Assembly: GCA_963793425.1 (NCBI GenBank)
Contig: CAWCAG010000009.1
Location: forward strand, 1,024,001-1,088,000
Direction: 5' to 3'
DNA length: 64,000 nt
Origin: an uncultured cyanobacterium
Lineage (GTDB): Bacteria > Cyanobacteriota > Cyanobacteriia > Cyanobacteriales > CAWCAG01
Of the stretch, positions 28,471 to 50,138 are shown one piece after another. Below the pieces are notes generated by a model that saw only the letters and a list, made by a program, of their open reading frames with translations, searched no databases and was not told where the DNA came from. A program made the translations under genes and the position numbers. Each line of letters opens with the position of its first letter. Positions within the stretch are counted from its first letter, which is position 1.

Positions 28471-28474
28471 GGTT

Positions 28475-32132: not shown

Positions 32133-32914
32133 ACTAATTCTCCCCGCAAAACCGTCACAGCTTGCCCTGCTAAGAAAACGCGATTCCCGCCGTCGTAATT
32201 TACTTTAACTGTGCCGCCTCGCCTTGATGCTTGGTAAGCTAAAAACTCATCTTTTCCTAGGCGATCGCGCCAAAAAGGAGCCAAACAACAATGGGCGGCT
32301 CCCGTTACAGGATCTTCATTTATACCTAATTCTGGGGCAAAGAAGCGGGAAACAAAGTCATATTCTGAACCAGCACTAGTGACAATTACTTTTCCGAAAG
32401 AGAGCTTTTTTAATAAGCCAAAATTTGGTTGCATTTGTTTGACTAATGCTGCTGATTCTACTTCTACTAAATAACCTAAAGAATTTTGCCAAACTGATTG
32501 ACAAGGGACTCCTAAAGCTTGAGATAATTCTGGTGGTGTAGGAATACTTTGAGAAGGATTTGCAGGAAAGTTTAATTCAATCCAATCACCCTGCCGGCGC
32601 GCAGTTAAGTCCCCACTCTTAGTATAAAAATAAGCTACTTCTTCTAGGGGTAAATGTCCTTCACTCCAAAGGACATGGGCGCTAGCCAAAGTAGCATGAC
32701 CACACAAAGGAACTTCCACCGTTGGGGTAAACCAACGTAGATGATAACCTTTATTTTGGGGTAGTAAAAATGCTGTTTCTGATAAGTTCATTTCCGCTGC
32801 GACTTGTTGCATCCATTCCTCATCCCTGGCCCTGTCTAAAACACATACAGCCGCAGGATTGCCAGCAAAGACTTGGCTAGTAAACGCATCTACTTGAATG
32901 ATAGTTTGTTTCAA
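32129..32914 (-). CDS. PhzF/YddE family isomerase
   Basis: VDAF..FAGNPA, NLSETAF, EVPLCGHATLA, EDPVTGAAH. Confidence 0.95.
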   Translation of the reverse strand: MKQTIIQVDAFTSQVFAGNPAAVCVLDRARDEEWMQQVAAEMNLSETAFLLPQNKGYHLRWFTPTVEVPLCGHATLASAHVLWSEGHLPLEEVAYFYTKSGDLTARRQGDWIELNFPANPSQSIPTPPELSQALGVPCQSVWQNSLGYLVEVESAALVKQMQPNFGLLKKLSFGKVIVTSAGSEYDFVSRFFAPELGINEDPVTGAAHCCLAPFWRDRLGKDEFLAYQASRRGGTVKVNYDGGNRVFLAGQAVTVLRGELV

Positions 32915-32952
32915 AATGTTTCCCCTGATTTAAGCAAAGTTTAGGCTATCAA

Positions 32953-33025
32953 TATAGCAATTCTCTTACTTGTGAGATACAGCCTGGTTTTCGCTAACGG
33001 CTAATGGCTAATGGCTAGTAGCTAG
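32953..33025 (+). mobile_element. Partial copy (one end) of the MITE at 41127
   Basis: TATAGCAATTCTCTTACTTGTGAGATACAGCCTGGTTTT resembles the reverse complement of 41181-41219. Confidence 0.7.
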
Positions 33026-33139
33026 GCAAGGAACAGAGTTAATAAATCCTTGGGCTTATAAGTATTGTTAAACCAACCAGAAACGACCTTATGCTTAATT
33101 GTATAAAGAAAATAGACTTGACAAAATTGAGGTAATGGG

Positions 33140-35518
33140 TTGAAAAAAATTTTTGCTCGTATCATTCTTTTCTTCTATACAGTAGGCTTAGGGATTTTAT
33201 TTACTTTCAATGCCTTACGTAAAAAAGCCCGCGCTACCCATAAATATGGCGTAGGAGGAGCAGGAATTGCCAAAATTATTGATCATCCTCAATTCCCGGA
33301 ACACGAATTTTTTCAGGCAGGCAGGGTTTTTCCTCTACGCCTGCGTCATGCCACAGTAACTTATCCTGATGAGGCAGCTAAGGATATTCGTAGCGTTTCG
33401 CTTAAGTTTTCTGATCATGAGAAGGAAAGTCCTTTAGATATTGTCATGAATACTGCCCCCCAAACTTTCCGACATATTGTCGGTTTTTGGCGATTTGCTC
33501 TTAGTTCTATTCTGAAAAAGAAGCCTGATGAACCGGTTAGTTCTTTAGGATTAAAGGAATACTGTAATTATGACTCTCATCAGCGGCTAATTTTTACAAC
33601 CGCTTTACGTCGCGCCCCTGAGAGCTTTACCCAAGTTTATTATCATTCTCAACTTGTCAACTATTTTAAGGCTGAAGATGGCAAAATCCGTTATGTAAAA
33701 TATCGCTTAATACCAGAAAATCGGGGGAAAGAGTCTGGTTTGCAAAGTGAAGAAGATGCCCAAACTCCTTGGTTACAAAAACGTTATCCTCAAGAAAAGA
33801 AGCGCCAAGATTATTTAAGTTTAGAATATATTGAAAGGGCCTCTAAAGAACCGATTATCTACCACCTACAACTACGTCTCCATGAAGATACAGGGGATGT
33901 AAAAGAGATTTGTCGCCAGGATCGGCCATGGAGTGAGGAGACTTCCCCTTGGTTAGACTTAGCCACCGTTACTATTCAGCGTCCGCTTACTTTCCAAGAA
34001 ACAGAAAAACTCACCTTTAATATTGGGACTCAACCTCCATCTTTGGGTATAGTAGATGGCAAGTCTATCTATGACCCTAACTCCATTAATTATGCGCGTA
34101 CTCGCGTTTATGGATTTTCTCAAGCAGTTCGCTACATTATCTACAAAATGAGTAAGTTCAAAAATCCTAAAGAAGAGTTTGTTTATCATGGGCAACCGGG
34201 TAAAGATTTACCCCGTTTTGACTTTAATAAAAAGTTGCCTAAACGAGTAGATGTCACCAAGAAATATAAGGCACAGGTAGGTTTAAATCTTCTCCCTGCT
34301 GTTAAAATTCTTAAATTTATTCCTATATTAGGTATTGTTGGTAGCGAGAAAATGATGGGGGCAAAAGCACCTAAATGGATGCCCACAAATTTAACTCGCT
34401 GTCGTTTAGATCGAGATAGTGATGAATTTTTTGTTGAACGCCGCCTTAATGGTTTCAATCCCGGCAAAATTAATCTTGAAAAGGATGCCAGTAAGGAGTG
34501 GCAATATTACGTTAGATACGATTGTAGTAAGTATGAAGTTGAGCCGGCAGGAATTTTACCCCAGGTAACAGAGGCACGCTTTCAGTTAATAGATGAAGAA
34601 TTAAAAGTTCACTCTATTGAATATACTTTGCAAAAGGAAACAAAAACCGTTTTCCCTAGCGAAAAAGATTGGAGTTTTGCTAAACGCCTTTTCCGCAGTG
34701 CCGAGTTTGTTTTCCAAGAAATTCAATCCCATTTAGGGCGTACCCATATGAATATGGATCAGTACGCTATGGCTTTTTATCGCAATATTGTTGATAATCC
34801 GATCAAGTCTCTTTTAGAACCCCATTTTGAAGGTTTAATTAGTATTGATAAAAATGGTGCAACTTCAATTCTCGGTTACGAAGGATTCATCCCTCAAGCT
34901 TCTGTCCTCACCAGCGATGACGTACATCGCCTTTTAATTGAAGAGGTGAGTCAGCTAAGTTACAAATGGACACCAGAGGTTATTAAACTCCCAGATTATA
35001 TCAAGAATAACTATTTCGACCCTGCCGCTAGTGCCATGTGGGGAATTATTGAAGAATATGTGGGAGAGTTTTTCGCTCAAAACGAAAATGCTATCAAACA
35101 TTATTGGTCAGAAGTTGTCGGAATGTCTGAGGATTTGGTTAAACATTCTATCCTCGAATCCACTTCAAAAACCTTAGCAGTTAATAATATAAATGAGCTT
35201 AAACAATTATGCGTTTATGTTATTTACCACAACACTTTTGTCCATTCCTGGGTTAATAATAAACAATACGATGATGGTGGCGATGTAGAGTATACACCTT
35301 TCGGTTTATGGGATGAGAATCATCCTAGTTATGATGTTAAAACTGAAGCGAAAAGACAGGCGAAACAAACGATTTTGATGTGGACTCTTTCTAATGTCCG
35401 TTACAACCCCATAATGGATGTAGGACCAGGAAATTTAAAAGAGTTACTTTGGCAGCACCGTCAAGAAATTGAACCAGGTATTGCCCTTGCTGATTTGATG
35501 ATGAGTATTCATATTTAA
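33140..35518 (+). CDS. Catalase-related heme (allene oxide synthase/hydroperoxide lyase-like) - lipoxygenase fusion
   Basis: RATH distal His, LDIVMNT, RTRVY proximal Tyr; LOX iron ligands HLGRTH, HSWVN and C-terminal Ile. Confidence 0.9.
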   Translation: MKKIFARIILFFYTVGLGILFTFNALRKKARATHKYGVGGAGIAKIIDHPQFPEHEFFQAGRVFPLRLRHATVTYPDEAAKDIRSVSLKFSDHEKESPLDIVMNTAPQTFRHIVGFWRFALSSILKKKPDEPVSSLGLKEYCNYDSHQRLIFTTALRRAPESFTQVYYHSQLVNYFKAEDGKIRYVKYRLIPENRGKESGLQSEEDAQTPWLQKRYPQEKKRQDYLSLEYIERASKEPIIYHLQLRLHEDTGDVKEICRQDRPWSEETSPWLDLATVTIQRPLTFQETEKLTFNIGTQPPSLGIVDGKSIYDPNSINYARTRVYGFSQAVRYIIYKMSKFKNPKEEFVYHGQPGKDLPRFDFNKKLPKRVDVTKKYKAQVGLNLLPAVKILKFIPILGIVGSEKMMGAKAPKWMPTNLTRCRLDRDSDEFFVERRLNGFNPGKINLEKDASKEWQYYVRYDCSKYEVEPAGILPQVTEARFQLIDEELKVHSIEYTLQKETKTVFPSEKDWSFAKRLFRSAEFVFQEIQSHLGRTHMNMDQYAMAFYRNIVDNPIKSLLEPHFEGLISIDKNGATSILGYEGFIPQASVLTSDDVHRLLIEEVSQLSYKWTPEVIKLPDYIKNNYFDPAASAMWGIIEEYVGEFFAQNENAIKHYWSEVVGMSEDLVKHSILESTSKTLAVNNINELKQLCVYVIYHNTFVHSWVNNKQYDDGGDVEYTPFGLWDENHPSYDVKTEAKRQAKQTILMWTLSNVRYNPIMDVGPGNLKELLWQHRQEIEPGIALADLMMSIHI

Positions 35519-35630
35519 ACTACACTTCACAGGAAAAATTCGTGATTAAGCTTAGACGAACAGAAACGCACTGTTAAAAAAAATAAGCAGGAGGGAATCG
35601 CCTTTCCCGTAATTTCTCGCAAAACGGAAT

Positions 35631-35664
35631 AAAAAAATCTCCCTAGTTTAGAACTGGGAGATTT
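35631..35664 (-). terminator. Terminator of rbp
   Basis: AAATCTCCC.AG-loop-CTGGGAGATTT with an A-run on the + strand. Confidence 0.7.
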
Positions 35665-35760
35665 ATAAGGGTTGAGGTTAGAGAAGTCAGTTGAACTTCT
35701 CTAAAAGTAGTTAGCTACTTGGTTCCTCGAAGAGTTGATTTTAAAATTCAACAAGCATTT

Positions 35761-36045
35761 CTAGAAACGGTTGTTTCGACGACCGCCGCCACCTCTATTT
35801 TCTTCACGAGGTTTAGCTTTATTAACTTTTAGGACACGATCCATCCACTCTGCGCCATCTAGAGCGCTAATGGCTTCATCTTCGTTGGCTTCGGATTCCA
35901 TCTCGACGAAAGCAAACCCGCGCATACGACCTGTTTCGCGATCGCTAGGAATATGAACCCGCTTAACGGTTCCATACTCGGCAAAGACTTCATTTAAGTC
36001 TTCTTGCTTAACTTCGTAAGATAAATTGCCTACATAAATCGACAT
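35761..36045 (-). CDS. RRM RNA-binding protein (Rbp family)
   Basis: IYVGNL (RNP2), RGFAFVEM (RNP1), Gly/Arg tail. Confidence 0.96.
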   Translation of the reverse strand: MSIYVGNLSYEVKQEDLNEVFAEYGTVKRVHIPSDRETGRMRGFAFVEMESEANEDEAISALDGAEWMDRVLKVNKAKPREENRGGGGRRNNRF

Positions 36046-36412
36046 ATTTTGTTTGTCTTCTCAGTGAGTGTTGTGTTTAGAGAGACAGAATTATTCAGAA
36101 AGCAATAGCTCAATACTTTACGGAAAAAACCTTTAGATACTGGATGCAAACTTAATCGTCAATAATTATGATTCTCAGTCTAAATAGTAACACTTTTATC
36201 GATGAAAACACACCATTCTATTTTTTCTAATGATTTGTTTAGATTTTGAGTGCTGAAAAAAAAATATAGTTCTCTGTTTTCGCTATCCAAAACTACAGCG
36301 ACGTAAAGGTTTCGCTGTGGCGTGATCGGAGCAAATAGCGATCGCGAGATGAACCATAACGATCCCCCGTGAACCGAAACTATAATCGTAAGAAAGCTTT
36401 GGAGAGAAATTG

Positions 36413-36637
36413 ATGACATTGCAGGAGTTGCAAAAGCAAGCATTACAGTTGTCAATTGGCAATCGCTGGCGTTTAGTTCAATCCTTGCTTGGCTCAATTA
36501 AACAAGAAACCTTACTATTTGGTTCTCCAAACCTAAATATGAATTTGGTTACTGGGCTTGTTCCCTGGACTCAAGGCTTAATCGGCACTATTTGGCTAAG
36601 CCCAGAAGAACTAACAAAATCCTATATAGCAAAGTAG
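36413..36637 (+). CDS. Small antitoxin-like protein (module copy A, probably truncated)
   Basis: MTLQELQKQALQLS; paralogue at 38919; TATAAT at 36381. Confidence 0.55.
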   Translation: MTLQELQKQALQLSIGNRWRLVQSLLGSIKQETLLFGSPNLNMNLVTGLVPWTQGLIGTIWLSPEELTKSYIAK

Positions 36638-36649
36638 CCCTAGACAAAG

Positions 36650-37303
36650 ATGAAGCCAATTTTGAACATTGAAGGCTTGTGTAGTGAGGCTGCCAAGCTT
36701 GCTGAAATAGAATCTTTATACAACGAGCCTACAATTTACGGTGTAACAGATGGAAAAGCTGTTGGAACTTATTTTGAACATAAGTTTAAAGCTTATTTAT
36801 CTGAAAACTACAGTTATCAACCAGGTAATTCAGCTTCAGGCATTGATATTCCTAGTCTTGAAGTTGATATAAAAGTAACAAGTATTAAACAGCCGCAATC
36901 ATCTTGTCCTTTCAAGTCAGCAACTCAAAAAGTATTTGGACTAGGACATCATCTTTTAGTTTTTGTTTATGAGAAATATGATGATCATGCCAATAAAACT
37001 GGAAGGTTAAATATGCAGCACACAATTTTCATAGATAAAAGTAGAACAGCAGATTTTCAGACAACTAAAGGCATCATAGACATTCTCAATCGAGATGGTA
37101 ATAAAGATGACATAATTGCTTTTATAATGGAGAGAAATTTGCCTGTTGATGACATTGGTGCAAATCAGTTAGGTGAAAGAATATTAGAATCGCCTCCAAA
37201 TCTGGGCTACTTAACAATTTCCAATGCTCTTCAATGGAGATTGCAATACAGTCGAGTTATTCAGCAAGCTGGTAGTATTTCAGGCATAATTAGAGTTCGA
37301 TAA
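36650..37303 (+). CDS. Type II restriction endonuclease, NspV-like
   Basis: GVTDGKAVGTY, SGID..VDIKVTS.KQPQSSCPF, SNALQWRLQY; adjacent to an MTase. Confidence 0.8.
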   Translation: MKPILNIEGLCSEAAKLAEIESLYNEPTIYGVTDGKAVGTYFEHKFKAYLSENYSYQPGNSASGIDIPSLEVDIKVTSIKQPQSSCPFKSATQKVFGLGHHLLVFVYEKYDDHANKTGRLNMQHTIFIDKSRTADFQTTKGIIDILNRDGNKDDIIAFIMERNLPVDDIGANQLGERILESPPNLGYLTISNALQWRLQYSRVIQQAGSISGIIRVR

Positions 37304-37306
37304 ATA

Positions 37307-38824
37307 ATGGTGAAAAAAATATCAGATAAGTGGCAGTTTGGCGACTTTCAAACTCCTAATAATCTTGCTAACAAAGTAGTAAAAATTCTCAGGTTAAATC
37401 ATAAAATAGCACCACAAGTTATTATTGAGCCATGCTGCGGTCAAGGAGTATTTGTTAAAGTAGCTCTCAAAGAGTTTAAAAAAGCAAAAATAATTGGCTT
37501 AGATATTAATGAAAAGTATGTTGAAGAAGCAATAAATTCTATATCTAAATACCCGAATTCAGAAAATGCTATTGTAGAAAAGTCTGACTTTTTTAACACT
37601 GATTGGCAGGATCTAATTTCTCAACAATTGGGTTATATTTTAATAATTGGTAATCCTCCTTGGGTTACAAGCAGTGAACTAAGTGTTCTTAATAGTCAAA
37701 ATCTTCCGGCTAAATCGAACTTTCATAATAGGCGAGGTATTGAAGCTATAACAGGTTCAGGAAACTTTGATATTTCTGAGTGGATGCTTCTACAACAGGT
37801 CGAATGGTTATCAAAAAGAGAAGGTACTATAGCTACTTTATGCAAGTTCTCTGTGGCTAGAAAGGTCATGCTTAAAGTGAGAAAAAAGTTAGGAAGTAGA
37901 TTTTCTACTTGTGTTTATTTAATAGATGCAAAAGCCTATTTCGGAGTATCAGTAGAAGCTTGCTTATTTGTTTTATCAACTAATAAAAATGAGGTTGATT
38001 GCGAAGTTTATGGAAATTTAGAAGCGGAGAAGCCATCTTATACAATTGGACAAAGAGATGGGCTAATGCTCAAGGATACAGTTAAATATGAGAAGTGGAG
38101 ACATTTATTAGGTCAAAATTTGAGATATGTATGGCGTTCTGGAGTTAAACACGACTGTTCTAAAATAATGGAACTAGAACGAGTTAATGATACTTTATTC
38201 CAAAATGGATTAGGAGAAAAATATATTTTAGAAGAAGACTACTTATATCCTCTTTTGAAAAGCTCAGATATTGGCAATGGTAGAACTGATTATTACCGGA
38301 AACTTGTTTTAATTACCCAGCAGGCAGTCGGAGAAGATACAAGCCTTATTCAACATAAAGCACCTCAAACCTGGCAATATTTACTTGAACATAAAAAGTT
38401 CTTTGAAAATAGAAAAAGTTCAATTTATAAAAATAAGCCATCATATTCTATTTTTGGCGTTGGCCCTTATTCTTTCAAAAGCTGGAAAGTGGCAATTTCA
38501 GGATTTTATAAAAGATTAAATTTTTGTCTTATTCATCCTTTAGATGGAAAACCAGTTATATTTGATGATACTGTTAATTTTTTATCTTTTGATACTGAAG
38601 AAGAAGCAAAGTTTATATTTAACCTGGTTACATCGCCTCCTTCGTTAGAGTTTCTCGATTATATGATTTTTTGGGATGAAAAAAGACCAATAACTATAGA
38701 TATTCTAAAGCGATTATCCCTTAAAGCTGTTGCTAAAGAATTGGGTGTTTTGGAAGAATATCTACATTGGGCTAAGGCTATTCAGATTAATGCTACAGGT
38801 CAGTTAGAGTTGGGGTTAGCATGA
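37307..38824 (+). CDS. Amino-DNA methyltransferase (gamma order), M.NspV-like
   Basis: GDFQTP; motif I EPCCGQG precedes motif IV NPPW; WRSGVKHDCSK. Confidence 0.88.
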   Translation: MVKKISDKWQFGDFQTPNNLANKVVKILRLNHKIAPQVIIEPCCGQGVFVKVALKEFKKAKIIGLDINEKYVEEAINSISKYPNSENAIVEKSDFFNTDWQDLISQQLGYILIIGNPPWVTSSELSVLNSQNLPAKSNFHNRRGIEAITGSGNFDISEWMLLQQVEWLSKREGTIATLCKFSVARKVMLKVRKKLGSRFSTCVYLIDAKAYFGVSVEACLFVLSTNKNEVDCEVYGNLEAEKPSYTIGQRDGLMLKDTVKYEKWRHLLGQNLRYVWRSGVKHDCSKIMELERVNDTLFQNGLGEKYILEEDYLYPLLKSSDIGNGRTDYYRKLVLITQQAVGEDTSLIQHKAPQTWQYLLEHKKFFENRKSSIYKNKPSYSIFGVGPYSFKSWKVAISGFYKRLNFCLIHPLDGKPVIFDDTVNFLSFDTEEEAKFIFNLVTSPPSLEFLDYMIFWDEKRPITIDILKRLSLKAVAKELGVLEEYLHWAKAIQINATGQLELGLA

Positions 38825-38918
38825 TTAGTGAATAGGAGACTAAATGCAAGTGTTCGTAACTATCGTGCCTTGAGAAGAAACCGTTTACAATAATCCCAAA
38901 AGCTGTGGAGAGGAACTG

Positions 38919-39419
38919 ATGACATTACAGGAATTACAAAATCAGGTATTACAATTGTCAGTTGGAGATCGCTGGCATTTAGTTCAATCCTTGCTTGGCT
39001 CAATTAAACAAGAAACCCTATCATTGAATTCCTCAGACTCAAGTGGCAATGAAATTTCAGGACTTAATCCTTGGAGGCAAAGCTTAATAGGCTTAATTCA
39101 GCCAAGCCCAGAAAACCAGACCACTCCCTATGACCTAACTTTAGAACTAAGTGATCAGGTTTTTGCTGCTATTATGCAACAAGCCCAAGCAGTTGGTGTT
39201 TCTCCGGAAAGATTAGCAACAACTTTACTTGAGAAGGAATTTAGTCAAGCTTTTAAGTTATTTAAAAGTGAGGCTGAAAAAGGTGCAGCACGAGCAAGAT
39301 TTGAGGCTCATTTTGGTACATTAGAATCAAGTGATTTAATGAGTTTAGATAATGAGAGTATCGATGCTGATTTAGCTAGAGAATATGCCAGTAAGCATGA
39401 AGAAGAGTATGCTTCTTGA
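38919..39419 (+). CDS. Chimeric antitoxin (module copy B fused to a VapB-like antitoxin)
   Basis: N-terminal ~68 aa paralogous to 36413; C-terminal LTLELSD...DNESIDADLAREY overlaps the PIN gene. Confidence 0.7.
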   Translation: MTLQELQNQVLQLSVGDRWHLVQSLLGSIKQETLSLNSSDSSGNEISGLNPWRQSLIGLIQPSPENQTTPYDLTLELSDQVFAAIMQQAQAVGVSPERLATTLLEKEFSQAFKLFKSEAEKGAARARFEAHFGTLESSDLMSLDNESIDADLAREYASKHEEEYAS

Positions 39420-39810
39420 TACATCTGGACTTCTCTGTCTGCAATTTTTAACTGAACCATTTCATACCCAAGCTTGTACCGAGTATCAGAAGGCAACTAA
39501 TAGATTAACTCATAATTACATCATTGCTGAGTATGTAGCACTTGCTAATGCGAGACGCTTTTCGCGATCTTCTGTTCTTAATTTTATTGTTGATTTGTTA
39601 AGTAATCCAGACATAGAAACTGTGTGGATTGATGAATCTTTAAATAGAGAAGCAGTTGAGCTATTGATTGCACGACCAGACAAATCTTATTCTCTGTGTG
39701 ATGCTGTTAGCTTCGTTTTGATGCGTCAACGTGGAATTACTAAGGCACTGACAACTGACCGTCATTTTGAGCAAGAAGGTTTTGTTAGACTCTTGCAGTT
39801 ATCTATTTGA
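39409..39810 (+). CDS. vapC: PIN-domain VapC toxin
   Basis: LLDTS, IIAE, YSLCDAVSF, LTTDRHF. Confidence 0.88.
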   Translation: MLLDTSGLLCLQFLTEPFHTQACTEYQKATNRLTHNYIIAEYVALANARRFSRSSVLNFIVDLLSNPDIETVWIDESLNREAVELLIARPDKSYSLCDAVSFVLMRQRGITKALTTDRHFEQEGFVRLLQLSI

Positions 39811-39890
39811 GCAATTCTCTTTCCTATCGATTTATACAAACTCCATAAAGCTATACTCATAGATGAAATAGCTGATCATAAACGCTTCCC

Positions 39891-42800
39891 ATGGAAAATG
39901 AGGCTCGAAGTATTCCTTCTTGGCTAGAAGAAAGTCCAGGCTCAAAAGTTAAGCCTCCCGTTCAAACAAAAATTCAAGAACTACCATTTGATAAATTAAC
40001 CTGGGAGAATTTTGAAAGACTATGCTTACGTTTAGTCAGGAAAGAAGCAAACGTAGAGCATTGTCAACTGTATGGTCAACGAGGCGATAATCAAGAGGGC
40101 ATTGATATCTATGCGAGATTGCTGGATAGAGACAAATATACTGTCTATCAGTGTAAACGAGAGAAGAACTTTGGCCCTGCAAAAATCAAATCAGCAGTCG
40201 ATAAATTCCTAAAGGGTAAATGGGCTAAACGAACAAACTGTTTCGTATTATGCACTCAAGAAAGCTTAAGACACAAAAACCGTGCTGATGAATTTAAAAG
40301 CCAAAGTGAAAAGCTCAGAAATGAAGGAATTTCTTTCATTGCCTGGGATGAGGATTATCTATCTAACACGCTCAAAAATTATCCTGATATTGTAGAAGAC
40401 TTCTTTGGTAAGCCTTGGGTAAATGCTTTCTGTAGTAAGACACAAGTAGATAATGTCAGCAACGAATCAGAAAAAGATATTTGTGTTGAGGAATATCAAT
40501 TATGGCTTGCGAAGAAAACATCTTCCTTTGTGATTCCGACGTTAGGTAAAACATTTTCTATAGCTACTGATTGGTTGCCGAGAAAAGCACTTTGCATTCA
40601 AGCAGATAAAGAAAGTTTTGATGTAGAACTAATTACAGAACTATATAAACGTTGCCTTATAATAGGCAATTCTGCTAGTGGTAAAAGTACGCTTGTCCGA
40701 AGATTGGCAAACTGTTTGACTCAGAAAAGAAAGAAAGTTTTGCTAGTACGTCTGCCAGATGTACTTCGTTTATATCAGCAAGGAAAGACCTTTACTGATG
40801 CTATTTTAGATTGCTCTATTGATGGTTCAAATATTGACCATTCTTTATTACGATTAGCGCTTAATAATCCTGACTACTTGTTAGCAGATGGTTTAGATGA
40901 ATGTAATACAGATAGAGCAGACATTGCTAGAAAATTGATGTCTTGGGCGGATGGTCATTCAACAACTAGAGTTATAGTAGCCAGTCGAAAAAATTGTATA
41001 CCGGAATCGTTATCGAATTGGCCACAATTGGAATTACAGCAACTCAATAAAGAGGAGATTCAGAAATTCTTTTCAAAGATTTTGAGTGCTGCTTCAGAAG
41101 AAAAATCGAAGCTTGAGGAAAAGTTATAGCCTTTCTCGGACTGATGAGGTACATTTCCACTAGCCACTAGCCAAAGCGCAAAAACCAGGCTGTACCTCAC
41201 TAGCCTAAGAATCGCTATAGCACTAATTGAAACAATTTTCCAAAACGAAAAAACATTATCTCTAGCACAGGAAAGTCCTCTCCTAGCTGGTTTTATTATT
41301 AGATTGGTTTTATCAGACGTAGATATCACTCAGAAGAATCGAACTGAACTTTATGAGGCGATAGTTAATCTCGCTTATGGTCATTCACCGGAGTTTAGGA
41401 AGTCTATTGAGCTTAGCAAGCGCAGTGCAAAGAGGTTTTTTTGTGTAGCTGGTTGGAAGCTAATGCAGAAACCTTCAATAACTGAAGATGAACTTGTAGA
41501 AGAATTAGTTCAAGAGCTTCAAACAATGGGTTACACTCTACAAGAAGCTGAAAATGAGACTGAGAAAGGCATTCAATTTTGGGAAGATAAACGTATTTTT
41601 TGTCGCTCCACTTTTGGACATAAAGATAGGGTCAGTTTTGTGCATTTATCTTTGTGCGAATATGCAGCAGGTAAATATGTTTCTCAACTAAACGACACGG
41701 CTTTGCAAAATTGGCTTAAGGAAGCTAAGAGAGATACTAGATGGAAAGAAACAATATGTTTTGCATCCAGCTTAGGTATGGGAGAAAAGGTTGTCAGATG
41801 CTTACTTGATTTAAACGATTCAAGAGATTTAGATTTCCCTGAAATAATACTAGCTTTAGCAGTCACTATAGAGAACAAAAACATTCCAGCAGAGTTGTTA
41901 GAGACTTTAATATCTCGAATCCAACCTCAACTAGAGTCATCTGAGCCTGACAATATCTTTGAAATTACAGTAGGACTATTATCTATATTGCCAAAAGCCT
42001 CTAACTTGATTGGTGATTTAGCTAAAACTTTACTTGAAAATGACAATTTTCATACTCGTATAGCTGCTACAAGGCTTATTTTAGCTTGTAAAGAGGAAAA
42101 CATTTGTCTAGATAAATTAACTCAGTTAATCAAAGAGATTTTATCAAATCCTATACCTAATATGAGATTATCATTTATGATTGGAGACAAAGGAAGCAAA
42201 AAATATGAGTGGGATATTAGAAATGAGATTATATTTTCTGGTTGTCAATTACTTCTGAAAAAGCGGCAAAATATTGAGACTCATAACCAGATATTGTTAT
42301 TAATTTCTGAATGTTCTTTCATCGGTGCAGGTATAGTAGACTCAGTGAAGGAATTGTTGTCAAACAGCGCATCAACAAAGTTGCAGACAGAAGACGCAAA
42401 AGAATGGATTTCTTTTCTGCAAAAGCTCACACCTTCTGATAGTTTTCCTAAAAAACTAAAACTAGAATCTCCCAAAGACATCTTGAGGAAACTTAAAATC
42501 TCAGAGAGAGCTAGATTGGCTGATAAGACATTTCTAGAATCAATTTTTCGCATAGTTGGAGTACCCCAAGAACACGAAAAGCTTAAATATTCTTCTGTTG
42601 GAATAGAATTAGTTGCTTTAGGAACTCTTTTTAAGGGAATGGGGTTGTGGCACATACCAATAACTGCATGGAATATTTTGAGTAATTGTGATGACCCTGA
42701 AGCTGTTGATACTGTTCTTAAGGGTATGATTATTGCTTTAGACATTGATCAAGAGAGGCTTATGGCTGAAGCATCAAAGGTTCTAAATGATATAGAACGT

Positions 42801-43151
42801 TTCTTTTCGTTTGACTTAAATTCGGTTAAATCTGTACTACAAAAGGACGAATATTCAGAAAGATTTTTTGAAACACTGGATTACTTATCCAGAGAGATTT
42901 ATCAAGACAAAAAAGCCTCACTTGCTATGTACCGCCATCTACCAAAAGTGCCTGTTATATACAAGTGGCATCTTGTTACTAATATTAGACTCTCTTCAAA
43001 AGTTTTAGTACGCGCCTTTGAGCATCCGTCAGCAGCAATTTCCCAAAACGCAGCTCTATTAGTAAAGTATGGAGCGGGAGGTGAAGAGGCAGTGAGATTG
43101 GCAAGAAAACTTGTAGGAGAGGAGGAATGGGAATCTTTTGAAAAAATGTAA
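39891..43151 (+). pseudogene. Restriction-endonuclease-like + NACHT NTPase + helical domain (NLR-like defence protein), interrupted by a MITE
   Basis: FERLC..QEGIDI..YQCK; GNSASGKS; LADGLDE; FVHLSLCEY; both ORFs share a frame and join when 93 nt are removed. Confidence 0.85.
41127..41217. mobile_element. 91-bp MITE with TA target duplication (IS630/Tc1-mariner type)
   Basis: 27-nt imperfect TIRs (20/27 match) TAGC..TTCT........TGAGGTACA; TA at 41125-6 and 41218-9. Confidence 0.88.
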
Positions 43152-43170
43152 AAAAGAATAATTCCTTTAT

Positions 43171-43517
43171 AAAAAATGTAGAGGCATAAAAAACACCTCT
43201 ACACTCAACTTCCAAATAATTAAACTACTGAAATTAGGTCAAAGCCATCGCGGGTTCTTCCCAACGTTCCACTGCCTTACCAATCACAGCTAACTCTTTA
43301 ACCAAACGCTCAAAACGCTCTGGAGTTAGAGATTGTGGCCCATCAGACATCGCCTTAGCAGGGTTGGGATGCACCTCAATCATTAATGAATCTGTCCCTG
43401 CTGCGATACCTACGGTGGGCTTTGCCTACGCAGCTTTAGCCATCGGAGGAACATACTCCCATTTCCCTGTACCGTGGCTAGGATCGATCATAATTGGTAG
43501 GTGAGAAGCACGATCGC
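43171..43517 (-). pseudogene. Displaced duplicate of the aroF 3' end with its terminator
   Basis: 43234-43505 encodes [11 protein letters not shown]...EEPAMALT* with 2 aa differences from aroF; terminator copy at 43171-43203. Confidence 0.95.
43408..43428. repeat. 21-nt insertion into a HIP1 site (SDR5-like)
   Basis: GCGAT[ACCTACGGTGGGCTTTGCCTA]CGC versus the intact GCGATCGC at the same position in aroF. Confidence 0.9.
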
Positions 43518-43759
43518 AAAGCATCTCAACTCAGAAAAATCGCATTCTTGGCAGATAAGAAACCAAAATAAAAGAATCGCACCTTAAGCGAGGATGAAAT
43601 TACCGGACTTGGTCTTTGGACGCAAAGCTTAATTGGTGTACTTAAGCCAAACTCAGAAAATTAAACTGCCCCCTATGATGTAACTTTAGAACTAATAAGA
43701 TTTAAGTAATCTTAAAACATATAGAATACAGTCAACTCTCCTATGCGGAGTTTTTATTT

Positions 43760-43969
43760 ATGACCTTAACTGAAATGCTTCCTGTAATCCGGCAGCTTTC
43801 TATAGTAGAAAAGCTTAAATTGATTCGGATTCTTGCAGAAGACCTAGAAGCGGCAGAGGATATTTCTCCTCTAGAACCGTTTAAGACCTATGACCTGCCA
43901 ACTCCTTACAATAGCTTTGGATCTGGTGCTGTATTGATGCAGGCAGTAGAGTCAGTAAACCAACCTTAA
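43760..43969 (+). CDS. Small hypothetical (antitoxin-like) protein
   Basis: MTLTEMLPVIRQLSIVEKLKLIRILAEDL; GGAG RBS. Confidence 0.7.
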   Translation: MTLTEMLPVIRQLSIVEKLKLIRILAEDLEAAEDISPLEPFKTYDLPTPYNSFGSGAVLMQAVESVNQP

Positions 43970-43974
43970 TTGTA

Positions 43975-44142
43975 ATGCGTTTTCGCTACTCTACTACCGA
44001 TTCTTCCCAAAACGAGTTCGATAGCCTGCCACGAGTTTCAATCATTCTTCGTCGAGAAGGACACACTGTAGAAGCTCTCGGACTTGTTGATAGTGGTGCA
44101 ACCATTAATGTTTTGCCCTATGAAATTGGTCTTCAATTCTAA
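43975..44142 (+). pseudogene. Retropepsin-like aspartic protease, truncated at 55 aa
   Basis: MRFRY...ALGLVDSGATINVLPY.IGLQF*; cut off by a 16-nt aroF-end fragment. Confidence 0.75.
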
Positions 44143-44183
44143 GTTAAAGCCATCAGATGAGAAGCGCGATCGCAATATAAGAC

Positions 44184-44217
44184 AAAAAATGTAGAGGCAT
44201 CAAAAAACACCTCTACA
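44184..44217 (-). terminator. aroF terminator
   Basis: TGTAGAGG-loop-CCTCTACA with an A-run. Confidence 0.75.
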
Positions 44218-44240
44218 CTTAAATTTTAAACTATCCAAGC

Positions 44241-45299
44241 CTAAGTTAAAGCCATCGCTGGCTCTTCCCAACGTTCTACTGCCTTACCAATCACAGCTAA
44301 CTCCTTCACCAAACGGTCAAAACGTTCTGGAGTGAGAGATTGTGGCCCATCAGACATGGCTTTGGCGGGGTTGGGGTGAACTTCGAGCATTAATGAATCT
44401 GTTCCGGCTGCGATCGCCGCTTTAGCCATCGGGGGAACATATTCCCATTTCCCAGTACCATGACTGGGATCAATCATGATGGGGAGGTGAGTTAGCGATC
44501 GCAACACAGGAATTGCGGCTAAATCTAAGGTATTGCGGGCATATTTACGGTCGAAGGTACGAATACCCCGTTCACAAAGAATTACATTAGGATTACCTGC
44601 TGCTAGGATATATTCTGCTGCCATTAATAAATCATCAATAGTTGCTGCCATACCCCTTTTGAGGAGGACTGGCTTATCTTGCGCCCCTACCTTCTTTAGC
44701 AAGGCGAAGTTTTGCATATTCCGCGCCCCAATTTGCACCACATCGGCAACAGCGGAGATTTTTTCTACATCCGCAGTATCCATCACTTCTGTGATGATGC
44801 CTAAGCCTGTTGCTTCCCTCGCTGCTGCCAAGAAATGTAAAGCACTTTCCCCATGACCTTGGAAAGCATAGGGAGAAGTGCGAGGCTTGTAAGCGCCACC
44901 CCGCAAGAATTTTGCCCCCGCAGCTTTAACTCGCTTAGCTGTTTCAACAATCATCTCCTCATTCTCCACAGAACAAGGGCCAGCCACTAAAACAATGGGA
45001 TGATTTTCACTGAAGCTAACCTTACCATTCGGGGTAGAAACCACCACTTCACTAGGTTGCCCGTGGCGAAACTCCCGGCTAGCACGTTTGTAGGGGCGTT
45101 CTACTCGTAAAACCCTTTCAATCCAAGGGCTAACTTCCTGTAGTTGTAAAGGGTCTAAAGAAGCAGTATCTCCTACTAAACCAATCACAACTTTATGTTG
45201 ACCAACAATTTTTTCTGGGGTTAAGCCCCAATCTGTAAATTCGGTGCTAACACGACTAATTTCCTCTTCTGGGGAACCAACTTTCATGACAACGATCAT
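44241..45299 (-). CDS. aroF: DAHP synthase (class I-beta)
   Basis: AGPCSVE, GGAYKPRTSPY, IGARNMQN, DPSHG. Confidence 0.96.
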   Translation of the reverse strand: MIVVMKVGSPEEEISRVSTEFTDWGLTPEKIVGQHKVVIGLVGDTASLDPLQLQEVSPWIERVLRVERPYKRASREFRHGQPSEVVVSTPNGKVSFSENHPIVLVAGPCSVENEEMIVETAKRVKAAGAKFLRGGAYKPRTSPYAFQGHGESALHFLAAAREATGLGIITEVMDTADVEKISAVADVVQIGARNMQNFALLKKVGAQDKPVLLKRGMAATIDDLLMAAEYILAAGNPNVILCERGIRTFDRKYARNTLDLAAIPVLRSLTHLPIMIDPSHGTGKWEYVPPMAKAAIAAGTDSLMLEVHPNPAKAMSDGPQSLTPERFDRLVKELAVIGKAVERWEEPAMALT

Positions 45300-45540
45300 C
45301 TATACAATCTCCGTATGCCCAGCAGTTTTAACCCTGGGAACAATAAATTAAGAATCGACAATTGAGAAAAATATTTTTAGTAACCTGCTTATGAGGTTCG
45401 CTTAACTATTTAGATATTTAATCAAACCGAGCATAAAGTTGCGATAAAAAACACAAAACTTTGATTGTCTTATTGATTTGGGTAACTTCCCTAAAATATT
45501 TTTAACCTAATTTTGGTTAATTTTCTTCCCTTGACTTGGC

Positions 45541-45990
45541 TTATTTTCTTCCGTCCCGCCAAGCGCTGGTAGTCCTCCTGAAGTTGGGGCCAACTTCTGC
45601 TAAACCTAGCCAACTACCTTGTCTGTTTTCATCCCAGGAACTAGAGAATAAACCATAGCTTAAGCCCAAAACACCTAGGCCAAAAAAGCCCATACTTACT
45701 AGCAAGACAGCAGAGGTGGGCAGTTTAAATAAATTGTGGGAGACAATCCAGTAGCTGACAAAGAAGCTAAGAATACCAAAGCTGGTGGGAATGCCAGAAA
45801 ATAGTGCCATACGACGCACCATACGCTTACTTACAGCATCTGGTATGGCAGCAAGACTTGCCTCAGTTTTGCGAGGGGTTTTCTCCACAACTTTACTAGG
45901 AGAAGAAGAGGGAGGGGCTTTTTTTGGGGTTTTCTTCTTTTTGTTTTTGGGTTCAAAAGGCAGATGTTCCCCTTGAGATTCAGAAGACAT
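45541..45990 (-). CDS. PAM68 family PSII assembly factor
   Basis: IPDAVSKRMVRRM, LSYGLFSSSWD; downstream of rpsO. Confidence 0.92.
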   Translation of the reverse strand: MSSESQGEHLPFEPKNKKKKTPKKAPPSSSPSKVVEKTPRKTEASLAAIPDAVSKRMVRRMALFSGIPTSFGILSFFVSYWIVSHNLFKLPTSAVLLVSMGFFGLGVLGLSYGLFSSSWDENRQGSWLGLAEVGPNFRRTTSAWRDGRK

Positions 45991-46097
45991 ATACAGCAGT
46001 TTTAATCAAAATGATTTATTCTAGACTTTGGTTTTGGCTAATCGCTAATTGCTTTACAAGGAGCGAGATTGCTTGTGGGTTAGGCTGTATAGTTTTG

Positions 46098-46367
46098 TTA
46101 GCGACGAATGCCTAAGCGCTTGATTAATTGGAGATAGCGTTCACGACTTTCGCTTTGAATGAAAGATAAGAGGCGACGGCGACGACCAATCATTTTTAGT
46201 AGCCCTCGGCGAGAAGCATAATCTTTTTTGTTCTTTTTAAGATGCTCAGTTAGTTGGTTAATGCGTTCAGTTAGCATTGCTACTTGTAGATCAGCAGAAC
46301 CTGTATCGGTTTCATGCTTCTGATATTCAGACATTAATTCTTGTTTGCGCTGTTGAGTGAGAGTCAT
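46098..46367 (-). CDS. rpsO: 30S ribosomal protein S15
   Basis: DTGSADLQVAMLT, SRRGLLKMIGRRRRLL. Confidence 0.99.
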   Translation of the reverse strand: MTLTQQRKQELMSEYQKHETDTGSADLQVAMLTERINQLTEHLKKNKKDYASRRGLLKMIGRRRRLLSFIQSESRERYLQLIKRLGIRR

Positions 46368-46491
46368 AGTTGTTAGATTAAATTAATAAAACGCAGCAAT
46401 TTACCATATTATCACTCCTCATAAGCTGTTTGGGCTTAAGAGGAGTGATTTTGGTGAGGGAGACTAGTTGAGATCAAGTCGCTCTGGGAAT

Positions 46492-48177
46492 TTATTGATT
46501 TTCCAAAGTTAAAGAATCTAGCAAAATTAAAGGTAAAGCTTCTTTGCTAATGCTTAGAGCATAACTGGAAGTTAAATAATCTTGGTACTCAGGCAATTGA
46601 CCAATGTAAGTGCTGAAGAAAGCTAAGCTCAGGGCCTTAACATATTCTTGGGCTATTTTGGGATCAGGACCGACGGCTTCAGGGGGAAGGGGAATACTAC
46701 CTTCGTCTTCGGCGATCGCAGAAAAATGTGTACCTCCTTTTAAAAGGGCTAGATATTTTGGGGGAGAGGTTAACCAAGTGAAGGGCATGATTTGCTCAAC
46801 TAAAACTGGGGTAACGGTGTCGTCACTGCTACCAAAAATCATAATTGGTTGCTCAATTTTGCCGATTTCAGTTTCTCCAAAAATTGTACTATCTAGAGGA
46901 TTGATCGCTATTACTGCGGCGATGCGGTCATCTTTTAACTCATAATTAGCGTCCTCTAAGTAAATAGCTTGACACTGAAGCAACAAAGAGATGTTAAGAA
47001 AATCGACATTACTATCAGATTGACAATCTGCTCGTACTTGTTCGCGGTTAATGTCTGCACCTGCTAGGGCTAAGCTGGTATAAGCGCCGTAGGATTGTCC
47101 TAAAATACCTATCCGTTCGAGATTAATCTTGTTGCTATAGGATTGTTCCAAAACATCTAATAAGTATTTAATATCTAAGGGTCGGTCAATTAATTCTTGG
47201 GGGGGAGAAACTTCGTTAGCCAATCCAGCTAACAAAGCCCCAACTTGTGCAGAATTACTACCAGGATGTTCTAAAGCAGCCACAGCAAAGCCGTGGGAGG
47301 CTAAATGAAGGGCAACATAGCGAAAGGAATTAAGATTGGAACCGAGTCCGTGGGAAATGACGATTAAAGGAGACGTTTCCTTACTATTTTGGGGTAAATA
47401 CAAATCAACAGGAAAGCTTCTTAAACGTTGATTGTCTCGGAGATTCAACCTTTCTACCGTAAATTTAGTTGTGCCAGACTCCCTTAGTTCCCTTAAATTC
47501 GGTAGGTTAGTGATGGGATTGGCTAAGGCAGATTCCCTCCCTTGAATTTCAATGTCGCTTACAGCTTGTTGAGTAAGCTTGATGGTACTGCTTAATTGAT
47601 CGAGAATTTGAAAACCGCTTCGGGAGTTGATGCGTATGCCGACGGTGGGAAACTTTTTTAAAATATTTAAAGGGGTTAGTCCTTCTTCATCAGCCGCAGC
47701 CAAAATTAAAGCAGAACGTAAAGCATAGAAACCTGATTGGCGGGCTTGGGTTTGAATTACTTTTCCTACCCGTTGCAAGATAATTTCTCCTTGGGGAGTA
47801 TAGAAAAACTGTGCTACAGCTACTGCATCTAAATCAGCACGGGTTTGCAATACTTGTCTGAGTTGAATTAACTGTTTTTCATTCAAATAACCAGCATAGG
47901 TAGTTAATTCTTGCTCAATTTTTCCTTCCCTAGCATAGGTTTCTAAAGCTTCTACGGAGATAGAAAAATCTAAAATCCCATAAGAAACATAAATGCGTTC
48001 TGCACTCAGGGCGCGATCAGCAAGTAAGTTAGGAGTGGTTAGCAAAAAGCCTAGATTAATTAGGGCAATTCCCCATTTAGTCCAAGACCGAGAAGTCGCC
48101 TTCGGAAAGGTGATTTTTTGATGAGTTAGCTTAGAGTTTTCGGTCAAAGGAGCAAACTTGGTGGAAAAAAAATTCAT
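46492..48177 (-). CDS. DUF1400 + alpha/beta hydrolase
   Basis: AERIYVSYG, SHGLGS, GQSYG nucleophile, GTHFS. Confidence 0.9.
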   Translation of the reverse strand: MNFFSTKFAPLTENSKLTHQKITFPKATSRSWTKWGIALINLGFLLTTPNLLADRALSAERIYVSYGILDFSISVEALETYAREGKIEQELTTYAGYLNEKQLIQLRQVLQTRADLDAVAVAQFFYTPQGEIILQRVGKVIQTQARQSGFYALRSALILAAADEEGLTPLNILKKFPTVGIRINSRSGFQILDQLSSTIKLTQQAVSDIEIQGRESALANPITNLPNLRELRESGTTKFTVERLNLRDNQRLRSFPVDLYLPQNSKETSPLIVISHGLGSNLNSFRYVALHLASHGFAVAALEHPGSNSAQVGALLAGLANEVSPPQELIDRPLDIKYLLDVLEQSYSNKINLERIGILGQSYGAYTSLALAGADINREQVRADCQSDSNVDFLNISLLLQCQAIYLEDANYELKDDRIAAVIAINPLDSTIFGETEIGKIEQPIMIFGSSDDTVTPVLVEQIMPFTWLTSPPKYLALLKGGTHFSAIAEDEGSIPLPPEAVGPDPKIAQEYVKALSLAFFSTYIGQLPEYQDYLTSSYALSISKEALPLILLDSLTLENQ

Positions 48178-48425: not shown

Positions 48426-49352
48426 ATGGGTATACAGGATTTAAAGGGAAGAGATTTTCTCAGAATAACAGACCTCAATTCCTCAGAGATTAAAGAGCTA
48501 TTGCATCTAGCTAAAGAGCTTAAAAGTGGAGAGCGTTCTTTTCGCACCCATAAAGAATTGGGGCTTTTGTTTTATAAAGCTTCCACTCGCACCCGTGTTA
48601 GTTTTACTGTGGCGATGCACCGTTTAGGAGGGCAAGTAATTGATCTTAACCCTAATGTTACTCAAGTAGGTAGAGGAGAACCAATCTCAGATACAGCAAG
48701 AGTTCTAGATCGTTACCTCAATATTCTCGCCATTCGTACTTTTAAGCAAGAAGATTTGGAAATTTTCGCTAAGTACACCAAAGTTCCCATCGTTAATGCT
48801 TTGAGTGATTTAGAGCATCCCTGTCAAATTTTAGCTGATTTATTGACGATACAAGAATCTTTTGAGGATCTTCGTGGGGTCAATTTAGCCTATTTGGGAG
48901 ATGGTAATAATGTTGCCCATTCTCTACTGTTAGGTTGCGCGTTGATGGGTATTAATATTAGCCTTGCTACCCCAATCAATCACCAACCCTCTAGAAAAAT
49001 TGTTGAACAAGGTCGAAATATTGCTGGCGATCGCTCTCAAGTTTTGCTTACTGATGACCCGATGCAAGCAGTCAAAAATGCCCAGGTTATTTATACTGAT
49101 GTTTGGGCAAGTATGGGGCAAGAAGATTTGGCAGATAGCCGCTTACCTGTATTTCAAAATTATCAAGTTAATGGCACTATTCTCAACAATGCTCATCCCG
49201 GAGCCATCGTACTTCACTGTTTGCCCGCCCATCGAGGAGAAGAAATAACAGAAGCAGTTATTGAAGGAAAACAATCAAAAGTTTGGGAACAAGCAGAAAA
49301 TAGAATGCACGCTCAACAAGCTCTTTTGGCAGCTTTATTAGGATTGTGTTGA
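48426..49352 (+). CDS. argF: Ornithine carbamoyltransferase
   Basis: STRTR, HPCQ, HCLP. Confidence 0.97.
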   Translation: MGIQDLKGRDFLRITDLNSSEIKELLHLAKELKSGERSFRTHKELGLLFYKASTRTRVSFTVAMHRLGGQVIDLNPNVTQVGRGEPISDTARVLDRYLNILAIRTFKQEDLEIFAKYTKVPIVNALSDLEHPCQILADLLTIQESFEDLRGVNLAYLGDGNNVAHSLLLGCALMGINISLATPINHQPSRKIVEQGRNIAGDRSQVLLTDDPMQAVKNAQVIYTDVWASMGQEDLADSRLPVFQNYQVNGTILNNAHPGAIVLHCLPAHRGEEITEAVIEGKQSKVWEQAENRMHAQQALLAALLGLC

Positions 49353-49400
49353 TGAGGCAAATCAACTAGCAATTAGCAATTAGCAATTACTTTCTTTGCT

Positions 49401-50100: not shown

Positions 50101-50138
50101 GTGATTAGGGAGCAGGGAGCTAGGGATGTAAATTAAAT

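Follow-up and report, generated by a model that had tools for sequence, protein, structure and literature searches.

A second, diverged aroF 3' end beside HIP1 in a cyanobacterial chromosome: a candidate integrase-free insertion of accessory genes

In the chromosome of an uncultured cyanobacterium (GTDB Cyanobacteriales; CAWCAG01), the 3' end of aroF, the gene for DAHP synthase, occurs a second time about 1 kb downstream of the complete gene, and defence-type and other accessory genes lie between and beyond the two copies. The window discussed here is the whole stretch of DNA that was analysed, 64,000 nucleotides of contig CAWCAG010000009.1 (assembly GCA_963793425.1, positions 1,024,001 to 1,088,000 of the forward strand), and all coordinates are counted from its first letter. 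It belongs to a contig of 1.14 Mb (C9) in a genome of 5.28 Mb (G000), which was compared with genomes from a sister species in the same genus (G001, about 85-90% DNA identity) and from a member of the same family (G002). An earlier reading of the sequence, hereafter the original prediction, proposed that DNA from relatives recombines within aroF and is resolved at the iterated palindrome HIP1, thereby restoring the gene, pushing its old 3' end downstream, and stacking defence genes without an integrase.

The live aroF gene (44241-45299, minus strand) encodes a protein of 352 aa that matches Pfam DAHP_synth_1 (E 7e-86), and it is followed by a terminator hairpin (T1; 44184-44220, minus strand) found by a terminator scan. 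Alignment of the DNA further downstream with this region pairs positions 43171-43517 with 44184-44504, which establishes the second aroF 3' end with terminator that had been proposed. This duplicate of about 330 bp comprises a terminator, a spacer, and the last 83 aroF codons, and its coding portion, including the stop codon, occupies 43234-43505 on the minus strand. The copied hairpin (T2; 43171-43203, minus strand) aligns with 44184-44217 and retains an 8-bp stem and a T-run, though the terminator scan did not flag it. A third aroF end, also correctly foreseen, measures only 16 nt (44139-44154, identical to 44241-44256). No other aroF fragments were found in a search of the whole genome.

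Over 252 coding sites, the duplicate is 86.5% identical to live aroF at the nucleotide level, and 3 of its 83 residues differ (S/T, I/L, and E/D). The corresponding nonsynonymous (dN) and synonymous (dS) divergences are 0.016 and 0.892, which gives a dN/dS ratio of about 0.02 (0.018). Two amino acid differences among many synonymous ones had been counted originally; the pattern stands, whereas the count must be raised to three. The dN/dS comparison that had been recommended as a check supports the view that the duplicate is a relative's allele of the aroF end. Because the divergence is mainly synonymous, it points to evolution of the duplicate inside a working aroF elsewhere. The substitution pattern indicates that the duplicate diverged under purifying selection within the functional gene of another lineage of the same genus, one that would be about as distant as the sister species, and that it is not the product of copying in place followed by decay.

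Comparison with the sister species provides a third point of reference. The dS between the duplicate and the sister gene is 0.741, versus 0.577 for the tail and 0.492 for the 5' part of live aroF. Nucleotide identity to the same gene is 90.5% for the aroF 5' part, 90.1% for the live tail, and 88.1% for the duplicate. At the 252 sites, private changes number 19 in the duplicate, 14 in live aroF, and 10 in the sister gene, and all three sequences differ at one site. In 90-nt windows, identity between live aroF and the sister gene lies between 0.88 and 0.96, and values are higher only over the first 180 nt. In the spacer, the sister sequence resembles each of the two copies in part, and overall it has derived states in common with both in a mosaic pattern. 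The live tail and the duplicate are separated from the sister gene by 25 and 30 differences, respectively, and these distances, like the site patterns and dS values, are so close that it cannot be told which tail is native and which is incoming. The proposal that the live end is the newcomer and that the old 3' end was pushed downstream is therefore indistinguishable from the arrival of a foreign end together with cargo.

The duplicate also holds a 21-nt insertion (43408-43428) that brings in an in-frame TAG. This small module has 17 copies in the genome at no more than three mismatches, and their consensus is near the copy at this locus. It splits an exact HIP1 sequence between GCGAT and CGC in 11 of the 17 cases and lies in one-base variants of that context in the other 6. 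In live aroF, the HIP1 that the module splits in the duplicate is intact (44410-44417).

HIP1 is abundant in this DNA. The 8-bp sequence GCGATCGC occurs 32 times in the window, versus 0.10 occurrences expected from shuffles, and 2591 times in the genome (0.49 per kb), such that 2591 of the 2700 CGATCG cores are full HIP1 sites. The duplicate ends close to such a core. At the junction where aroF homology ends in the alignment (J2; 43495-43517), the duplicate carries a HIP1-like ACGATCGC at 43510-43517, opposite GCGATCGC in aroF at 44495-44502. Clear homology ends at nucleotide 809 of the gene, and the CGATCG core is 5 nt away at 799-804. On the gene strand the core sequences of the two ends differ, reading GCGATCGC-TAACTCAC in one and ACGATCGTGCTTCTCAC in the other.

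A related junction, J3 (44139-44175), was recognized by sequence comparison and a HIP1 scan, and it consists of the 16 nt of the third aroF end, followed by AGATGAGAAGCGCGATCGCAA, and a HIP1 at 44166-44173. J3 matches the inner end of J2 at 19 of 21 bases, and the two junctions show no likeness beyond these 21 nt. The motif GAGAAGC(A/G)CGATCGCA is present at both 43503 and 44159, with no match at three or fewer mismatches elsewhere in the 5.28-Mb genome. A search of 185,579 species genomes gave three matches, none of which adjoins aroF. Between the HIP1 core and the aroF part, J2 and J3 have 4 or 5 bases in common that fit neither aroF nor HIP1. Judging from these sequences, J3 appears to be what is left of a J2-type junction after further deletion, and not a separate resolution event. 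The motif reported originally is real and unique in the genome, but its two occurrences do not represent two independent resolutions at HIP1, since the bases in common reveal a single junction.

No genes for mobility were found in or beside the insert. Pfam searches detected no integrase or transposase families in the open reading frames (ORFs) of 33140-48177 or in 16 flanking ORFs within 21765-32914 and 48426-56543, and ORF scans with PADLOC and NCBIfam likewise revealed no mobility genes in or beside the insert. Contig C9 carries no tyrosine or serine recombinase. Elsewhere in the genome there are six Phage_integrase matches, on contigs C2, C3, C4, C6, and C7, and a single weak Resolvase match on contig C5. 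Collections of phage and plasmid records contain no match to the duplicated fragment. An island without an integrase, as had been proposed, is thus what is observed in the scanned window ORFs and on the contig. The genome does carry an intact ComEC gene, from which natural competence can be predicted only.

The region bounded by live aroF is accessory. Homology to the sister genome ends at 35517 on the left and resumes at 44187 on the right, within T1, and homology to the genome of the same family ends on the left at about 36176. The cargo in 36050-44240 is absent from both genomes, save for matches to the aroF tail and to a mobile-element-like repeat described below. Relative to these two nearest genomes, the stretch 35518-44186 is accessory. 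Each of the two genomes has one aroF tail, and the DNA downstream of it is unrelated. A HIP1 at 36338-36345, found by the HIP1 scan, had been taken for the left edge of the island, but it is located at least 160 nt from either mapped homology end, and 55 nt from the start (36393) of a repeat that is treated below. The left edge therefore cannot be described as a HIP1 joint. The HIP1 sites in this part of the window are at 36338, 44166, 44410, and 44495, with none from 36346 to 44165. Although this agrees with the reported lack of HIP1 in the restriction-modification (R-M) and NACHT genes, a gap of such length is not rare, because gaps longer than 7.8 kb make up 48 of 2582 in the genome and cover 10% of it.

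The left side and its surroundings are rearranged relative to the sister genome. From 28000 to 36400, the window and the sister genome (loci L031 and L033) are collinear only in blocks of a few kb, and six changes of place occur in about 38 kb of the sister genome. Apart from those at the aroF locus, no such change of place lies within 30 nt of a HIP1 core. The leftmost gene of interest, rbp (35761-36045, minus strand), encodes an RRM-type RNA-binding protein (Pfam RRM_1, E 1.4e-21) and lies inside the stretch that lacks a counterpart at this place in the sister genome. The gene of the sister genome that best matches rbp is the orthologue of another paralogue, which is on contig C5.

The DNA between the two aroF repeats amounts to about 0.7 kb and contains a pseudogene fragment, two ORFs of which the second is cut short, and the 37-nt J3. 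The fragment (C; 43565-43695, plus strand) is the 3' part of a small antitoxin-like gene found by tblastn, and it corresponds to repeat D3, which is 77% identical to 39038-39150. It contains a stop codon and a frameshift, its 5' part is missing at J2, and homology to its gene family is only marginal in 43518-43565. Next come a PDC-M52A-like ORF of 69 aa (43760-43969, plus strand; PADLOC, E 2.6e-4), which also has weak antitoxin-type matches below cut-off, and a PDC-M52B-like ORF (43975-44142, plus strand; PADLOC, E 1.2e-10, profile positions 6-58 of 139). The latter is truncated at residue 55 relative to its 139-position profile, which agrees with the claim that a gene is cut by the 16-nt aroF end. 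Its designation as a protease depended on a DSGA motif noticed by eye, and no Pfam family matches at E<=1.

Beyond the duplicate lie the genes that gave the island its defence character. Small ORF A (75 aa; 36410-36637, plus strand) is the first of three family copies and has 64% identity with the N-terminal part of ORF B (166 aa; 38919-39419, plus strand), an antitoxin-like ORF whose match to TIGR02574, an addiction-module component, scores 17.5 bits, below the cut-off of 31.9. According to tblastn against the whole genome, A, B, and C are the only copies of this family, and all three are in the island. A and B enclose an R-M pair, which is composed of a type II restriction endonuclease gene (36650-37303, plus strand; NCBIfam NF052465, 346.6 bits with a cut-off of 290; PADLOC REase_II, E 1.4e-96) and a type II DNA methyltransferase gene (37307-38824, plus strand; PADLOC MTase_II, E 5e-163; Pfam N6_Mtase). 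The 5' parts of the two antitoxin-like genes form a direct repeat of 233 nt at 76% identity (36393-36625 and 38899-39131), the central 60 nt of which are identical at 56 positions, and neither end of this repeat has a HIP1. It is this A/B repeat, unrelated to aroF, and not the aroF repeats, that brackets the R-M pair (36650-38824), and the layout resembles that of another, older scar with this type of structure. An apparent collinearity of the HIP1 at J2 with GATCGC in the two small ORFs was considered and rejected as too weak, given that its alignment score was reached by 63 (B) and 114 (A) of 2000 shuffles.

Further genes follow on the plus strand. An ORF of 141 aa whose frame is doubtful (39385-39810) has no Pfam, NCBIfam, or PADLOC match. 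The large gene at 39891-43151 encodes Mrr_cat and NACHT domains (Pfam) and a helical C-terminal part; no usable relative of this 615-aa part was found in the collection of genome contigs. The gene is split by a 93-nt element resembling a miniature inverted-repeat transposable element (MITE) at 41125-41217, removal of which yields one open frame of 1055 codons. The element has 10 near-full copies in the genome, several of them 100% identical. In one contig from a sequencing run (X4), precisely these 93 nt (ends TA..TA) are missing, and the insertion is therefore polymorphic. The R-M and NACHT genes both lie beyond the duplicate, and no aroF scar ties them to the proposed mechanism. Consequently, the idea that they were stacked by successive aroF/HIP1 events is not upheld, and round-by-round growth of the island is not shown.

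Taken together, the locus might best be explained as an integrase-free insertion with long target duplication, produced either by homology-facilitated illegitimate recombination (HFIR) or by a single crossover with a circle, and joined at HIP1. We would give this explanation a probability of roughly 55%. DNA of another lineage of the same genus would have entered the cell, probably by natural transformation, and paired with the chromosome through its aroF homology. The other end of the incoming DNA would then have been joined illegitimately at or beside a HIP1 (CGATCG). In the first of two possible routes, HFIR would have acted on a linear fragment; in the second, a fragment circularised at HIP1 would have been integrated by a single, Campbell-type crossover. 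Either route would leave a complete aroF gene and a second, allelic 3' end with terminator, with about 0.7 kb of cargo between them. Since the two repeats are two alleles of the target, they point to DNA from a relative. We infer that the DNA was taken up by transformation, that HIP1 served as a microhomology or as a cutting or priming site, and in which order the events took place.

Evidence for recurrence comes from a survey of extra aroF fragments that was blind to HIP1 and covered 79 other cyanobacterial aroF loci, each extending up to 10-12 kb downstream (three of them shortened by contig ends). This survey replaced an order-wide protein search for AroF tails, which matched 360 of 401 genomes with 601 matches and was unfit for counting duplicates. 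Extra DNA matches were present in 12 of the 79 loci, 10 of them only in the 60-nt flanks (intergenic repeats) and 2 with coding sequence. The first coding case (L045), in Microcoleus sp. S13_C3 (JAUBPT010000091.1, 12066-12175), is a 96-nt internal aroF fragment that is 94% identical to the neighbouring gene and is located about 1 kb downstream of aroF, immediately after a Uma2-family gene. It has frame-breaking changes and a copy of GGCGATCGC on either side, and its left end coincides with aroF's own CGATCGC. The piece looks like it was copied from the HIP1 of aroF and pasted into a HIP1 site, which was duplicated in the process, and such an event would fit microhomology-primed synthesis or cutting at HIP1.

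The second coding case (L246; genome G229, 10856-10931) is a 76-nt copy, at 89% identity, of an aroF end and its downstream flank. The copy follows an ORF with RTX repeats and is separated by 1.1 kb from a second aroF gene upstream of it, and its boundary falls inside the CGATCG of aroF at gene nucleotides 1026-1031. Two independent aroF-tail fragments in other cyanobacteria therefore end at CGATCG, as the duplicate ends beside its core, and this aspect of the original prediction has gained support. With the present locus included, all three aroF-tail fragments, from three lineages, end no more than 5 nt from CGATCG. The chances that a random boundary in the last 400 nt would fall within 5 nt of a core are 0.08, 0.04, and 0.12, with a product of 3.8e-4.

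The alternative that survives best accepts the scar as real but holds that HIP1 is at its boundary by coincidence, as conserved peptide motifs encode HIP1 in aroF tails. Although we consider this unlikely, it gains from several observations, all of which weigh against the explanation that we favour. Given that aroF tails carry one to three conserved CGATCG sequences, a boundary near one of them is not very improbable in any single case (P 0.04-0.12). At J2, the core of the duplicate is shifted by one base from the aroF frame, and the joint therefore does not run cleanly from one HIP1 to another; the similarity does stop beside a HIP1-like core that corresponds to the HIP1 of aroF, much as had been proposed, but at a distance of 5 nt and out of register by this one base. 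A further point against the favoured explanation is that the non-aroF, non-HIP1 bases common to J2 and J3 mean that the two derive from one ancestral junction, which can be counted only once.

Nor is HIP1 enriched at repeat ends or synteny breaks in the genome at large. The core is found within 12 nt in either copy at 40 of 1330 ends of low-copy repeats (3.0%), versus 2.8% at control offsets, and near 12 of 292 ends of short repeats with at least 85% identity. Among 51 listed ends of blocks shared with the sister genome, a core occurs within 30 nt only at four rows, all for the aroF locus and two of these listed twice. The enrichment of HIP1 at breakpoints that had been anticipated is consequently suggested by the three aroF-tail fragments and not seen at repeat or block ends. 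Also problematic is the lack of a clear reference state. The two flanks of the locus are on different contigs in the sister genome, which shares only blocks of a few kb with the genome under study, and this rearrangement leaves no clean empty site for comparison. No donor or empty site was found; both comparison genomes are rearranged here, and no closer relative could be recognized by AroF, with no match above 81% identity among genome contigs or above 79% among metagenome contigs.

A purely coincidental HIP1 nevertheless has difficulty accounting for the three independent aroF-tail fragments that all end at or beside CGATCG, and for the receiving site in Microcoleus, which is itself a HIP1 and has been duplicated. 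J2 and J3, moreover, have their HIP1 core on the side that is not derived from aroF. Repeat ends with a core in both copies number 8 of 1330, versus about 0.1% for controls. Overall, the link between HIP1 and aroF-tail boundaries is suggestive, and it is not general in this genome.

Another explanation, which we judge to be quite improbable, is that site-specific integrative elements, one or several, inserted at the aroF 3' end and left their remnants here. Such an element would bring a replacement gene end, and the host end that it displaced would stay at the far att site. The elements would since have lost their integrase or have been mobilised in trans, accreting in the manner of cis-mobilisable elements, and J2 and J3 would be attR-type attachment sites with a short element arm in common. 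The layout can indeed be read as attL-element-att-element-attR with a gene end displaced from one fixed point, and the agreement of J2 and J3 at 19 of 21 bases, including bases foreign to aroF, would be natural for attachment sites. Mainly synonymous divergence would likewise be expected if the gene end had been carried from another host. However, the 1.14-Mb contig and the scanned window ORFs lack a tyrosine or serine recombinase, and the similarity of J2 and J3 is confined to 21 nt. The junction motif is unique in the genome, and its three matches in other species are unrelated to aroF. In the 79 other aroF loci there is no element that combines a full aroF tail with the layout typical of an integrase, the phage and plasmid records offer no match, and the units would measure no more than about 0.3 and 0.7 kb. 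The core sequences at the two ends also differ, and apart from the layout all defining features of such an element are lacking.

An equally doubtful possibility is that the tail was copied within the genome, by template switching or by break repair primed at HIP1, and that a diverged allele subsequently replaced one of the copies by homologous recombination. The Microcoleus locus demonstrates a recent intragenomic copy, 94% identical, with HIP1 on both sides and frame-breaking changes, and the mosaic of derived states in the sister species is what would be expected in a recombining population. Such a history needs two events, though, and a dead copy should gather nonsynonymous changes and indels, whereas only 3 of 83 residues are changed here besides the 21-nt module. 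Replacement by a diverged allele should also be visible as a jump in divergence from the sister gene, and the 90-nt windows along aroF reveal none.

The weakest alternative, that the assembly placed two strain haplotypes of the aroF tail one after the other, is very improbable even though the genome is metagenome-assembled and strain variants are evident in one run, because separately built contigs of three other runs traverse both copies with 0-1 mismatches at even depth. Four runs of one study (X1-X4) contain the stretch, and single Logan contigs extend over 41190-46000 in X1 (0 other letters), 41190-44917 in X2 (0), and 41192-46000 in X3 (1), passing through T2, the duplicate, J2, the cargo, J3, T1, and aroF. 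These bridging contigs in three of the four runs exclude, to the extent that contigs can, the haplotype mis-join that had been named as a possible refutation. The runs may be the assembly's own source, and the contigs should therefore be regarded as a test of the join and not as independent samples. The X1-X3 contigs have one T fewer in a T-run at 39445, which shifts the frame in the 141-aa ORF, and a C in place of A at 37216 in the endonuclease gene; these are either two small assembly errors or signs of a slightly different strain. One X4 contig stops at 44138, which might reflect a strain difference at J3.

If the HIP1-joined insertion is accepted as the best reading, a wider proposal can be tentatively considered, namely that cyanobacteria gain genes without an integrase preferentially through joints at HIP1, with DNA from relatives anchored by homology in a conserved gene and sealed at HIP1. 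This generalization is doubtful at present, but it would have interesting consequences. HIP1 would serve as an 8-bp universal microhomology, or as a site for cutting or priming, and conserved HIP1 sequences in the tails of housekeeping genes such as aroF would be docking points at which accessory and defence genes can be added while the essential gene stays whole. According to excerpts of two recent reports, HIP1 makes transformation and recombination more efficient in a Chi-like manner (bioRxiv 10.1101/2024.09.10.611283) and is linked to transformation efficiency (PMC13756078). A concrete role for HIP1 in genome plasticity would be in line with such reports of boosted transformation. The purpose of HIP1 has been an open question for about 30 years, and allelic gene tails that end at HIP1 next to accessory genes, as scars of natural events, would be field evidence for such a role. 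If HIP1 is incidental, then the locus is one more recombination scar of a described class. In either case, it is a clear example of defence-type genes in a chromosome without mobile-element machinery and with the essential gene intact.

Several known systems resemble parts of this arrangement. The elements ICESt1 and ICESt3, inserted in fda, together with cis-mobilisable elements, restore the 3' end of the target gene and pile up by accretion. Their hallmarks of a complete gene, cargo, an end displaced from a fixed point, and tandem units with internal att-like sites can all be recognized at the aroF locus. Unlike those elements, the locus has no integrase on its contig, a common arm of 21 nt, units of less than 1 kb, and no family among the 79 surveyed loci. 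For the 21-nt module, the closest parallel is the small dispersed repeat SDR5, which inserts between the third and fourth bases of HIP1 (Elhai et al. 2008, as cited in excerpts of PMC4390886 and PMC5861425). The module splits GCGAT from CGC, the same position on the other strand, going by the position described in those excerpts. This likeness concerns only the small insertion in the duplicate and not the duplication.

HIP1 has been connected to illegitimate or site-specific recombination before. A deletion of smtB in Synechococcus PCC 6301 was flanked by HIP1 (Gupta 1993, through excerpts of PMC13756078), and hints of HIP1-linked recombination are attributed to Robinson 1997 and Akiyama 1998 in excerpts of PMC4390886. 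As at aroF, HIP1 is at the ends of a rearranged segment in these cases. They differ in that they represent deletions or plasmid recombination between two HIP1 sites, whereas the gene tails bounded by HIP1 at the present locus have been duplicated and adjoin accessory genes.

The route through a linear fragment would have precedents in HFIR, which is said to accompany natural transformation in Acinetobacter, S. pneumoniae, and P. stutzeri. The process is defined in an excerpt of PMC3240628. The aroF locus would have several of its ingredients, with aroF as the homologous anchor, a relative as the donor, and no need for a recombinase. On the other side, the illegitimate joint would lie at a short GC-rich match, for which the CGATCG core at J2, 5 nt beyond the last clear aroF base and one base out of register, is a candidate. 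HFIR has been seen in laboratory crosses, and its usual outcome is the replacement of recipient DNA. The joint here, by contrast, would lie upstream of the end of the anchor, such that the gene tail was duplicated, and the short match would be the genome's own iterated palindrome.

The overall structure agrees most directly with insertion with long target duplication, which was reportedly treated by Nobusato et al. in 2000. Excerpts of a later study (Furuta, Abe and Kobayashi, NAR 2010; PMC2853133) describe inserts free of mobility genes, often R-M, between direct repeats of 30 to more than 400 bp, which greatly exceed the duplications made by transposons or at att sites, mostly in naturally competent bacteria and with one case in Microcystis. 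Likewise, no mobility gene is present at the cyanobacterial locus, where an aroF-tail repeat of about 330 bp surrounds 0.7 kb and a repeat of 233 nt surrounds the R-M pair. The repeats described in the published excerpts are near-identical (417/423), whereas the aroF repeats are 13% apart with a dN/dS of 0.02 and represent two alleles. Another difference is that one end is at HIP1, and the R-M genes by which the published inserts were sought are lacking between the aroF repeats. The structural class itself is known, and what is new here is the allelic divergence of the repeats, along with a HIP1 core that recurs where aroF tails end in three lineages.

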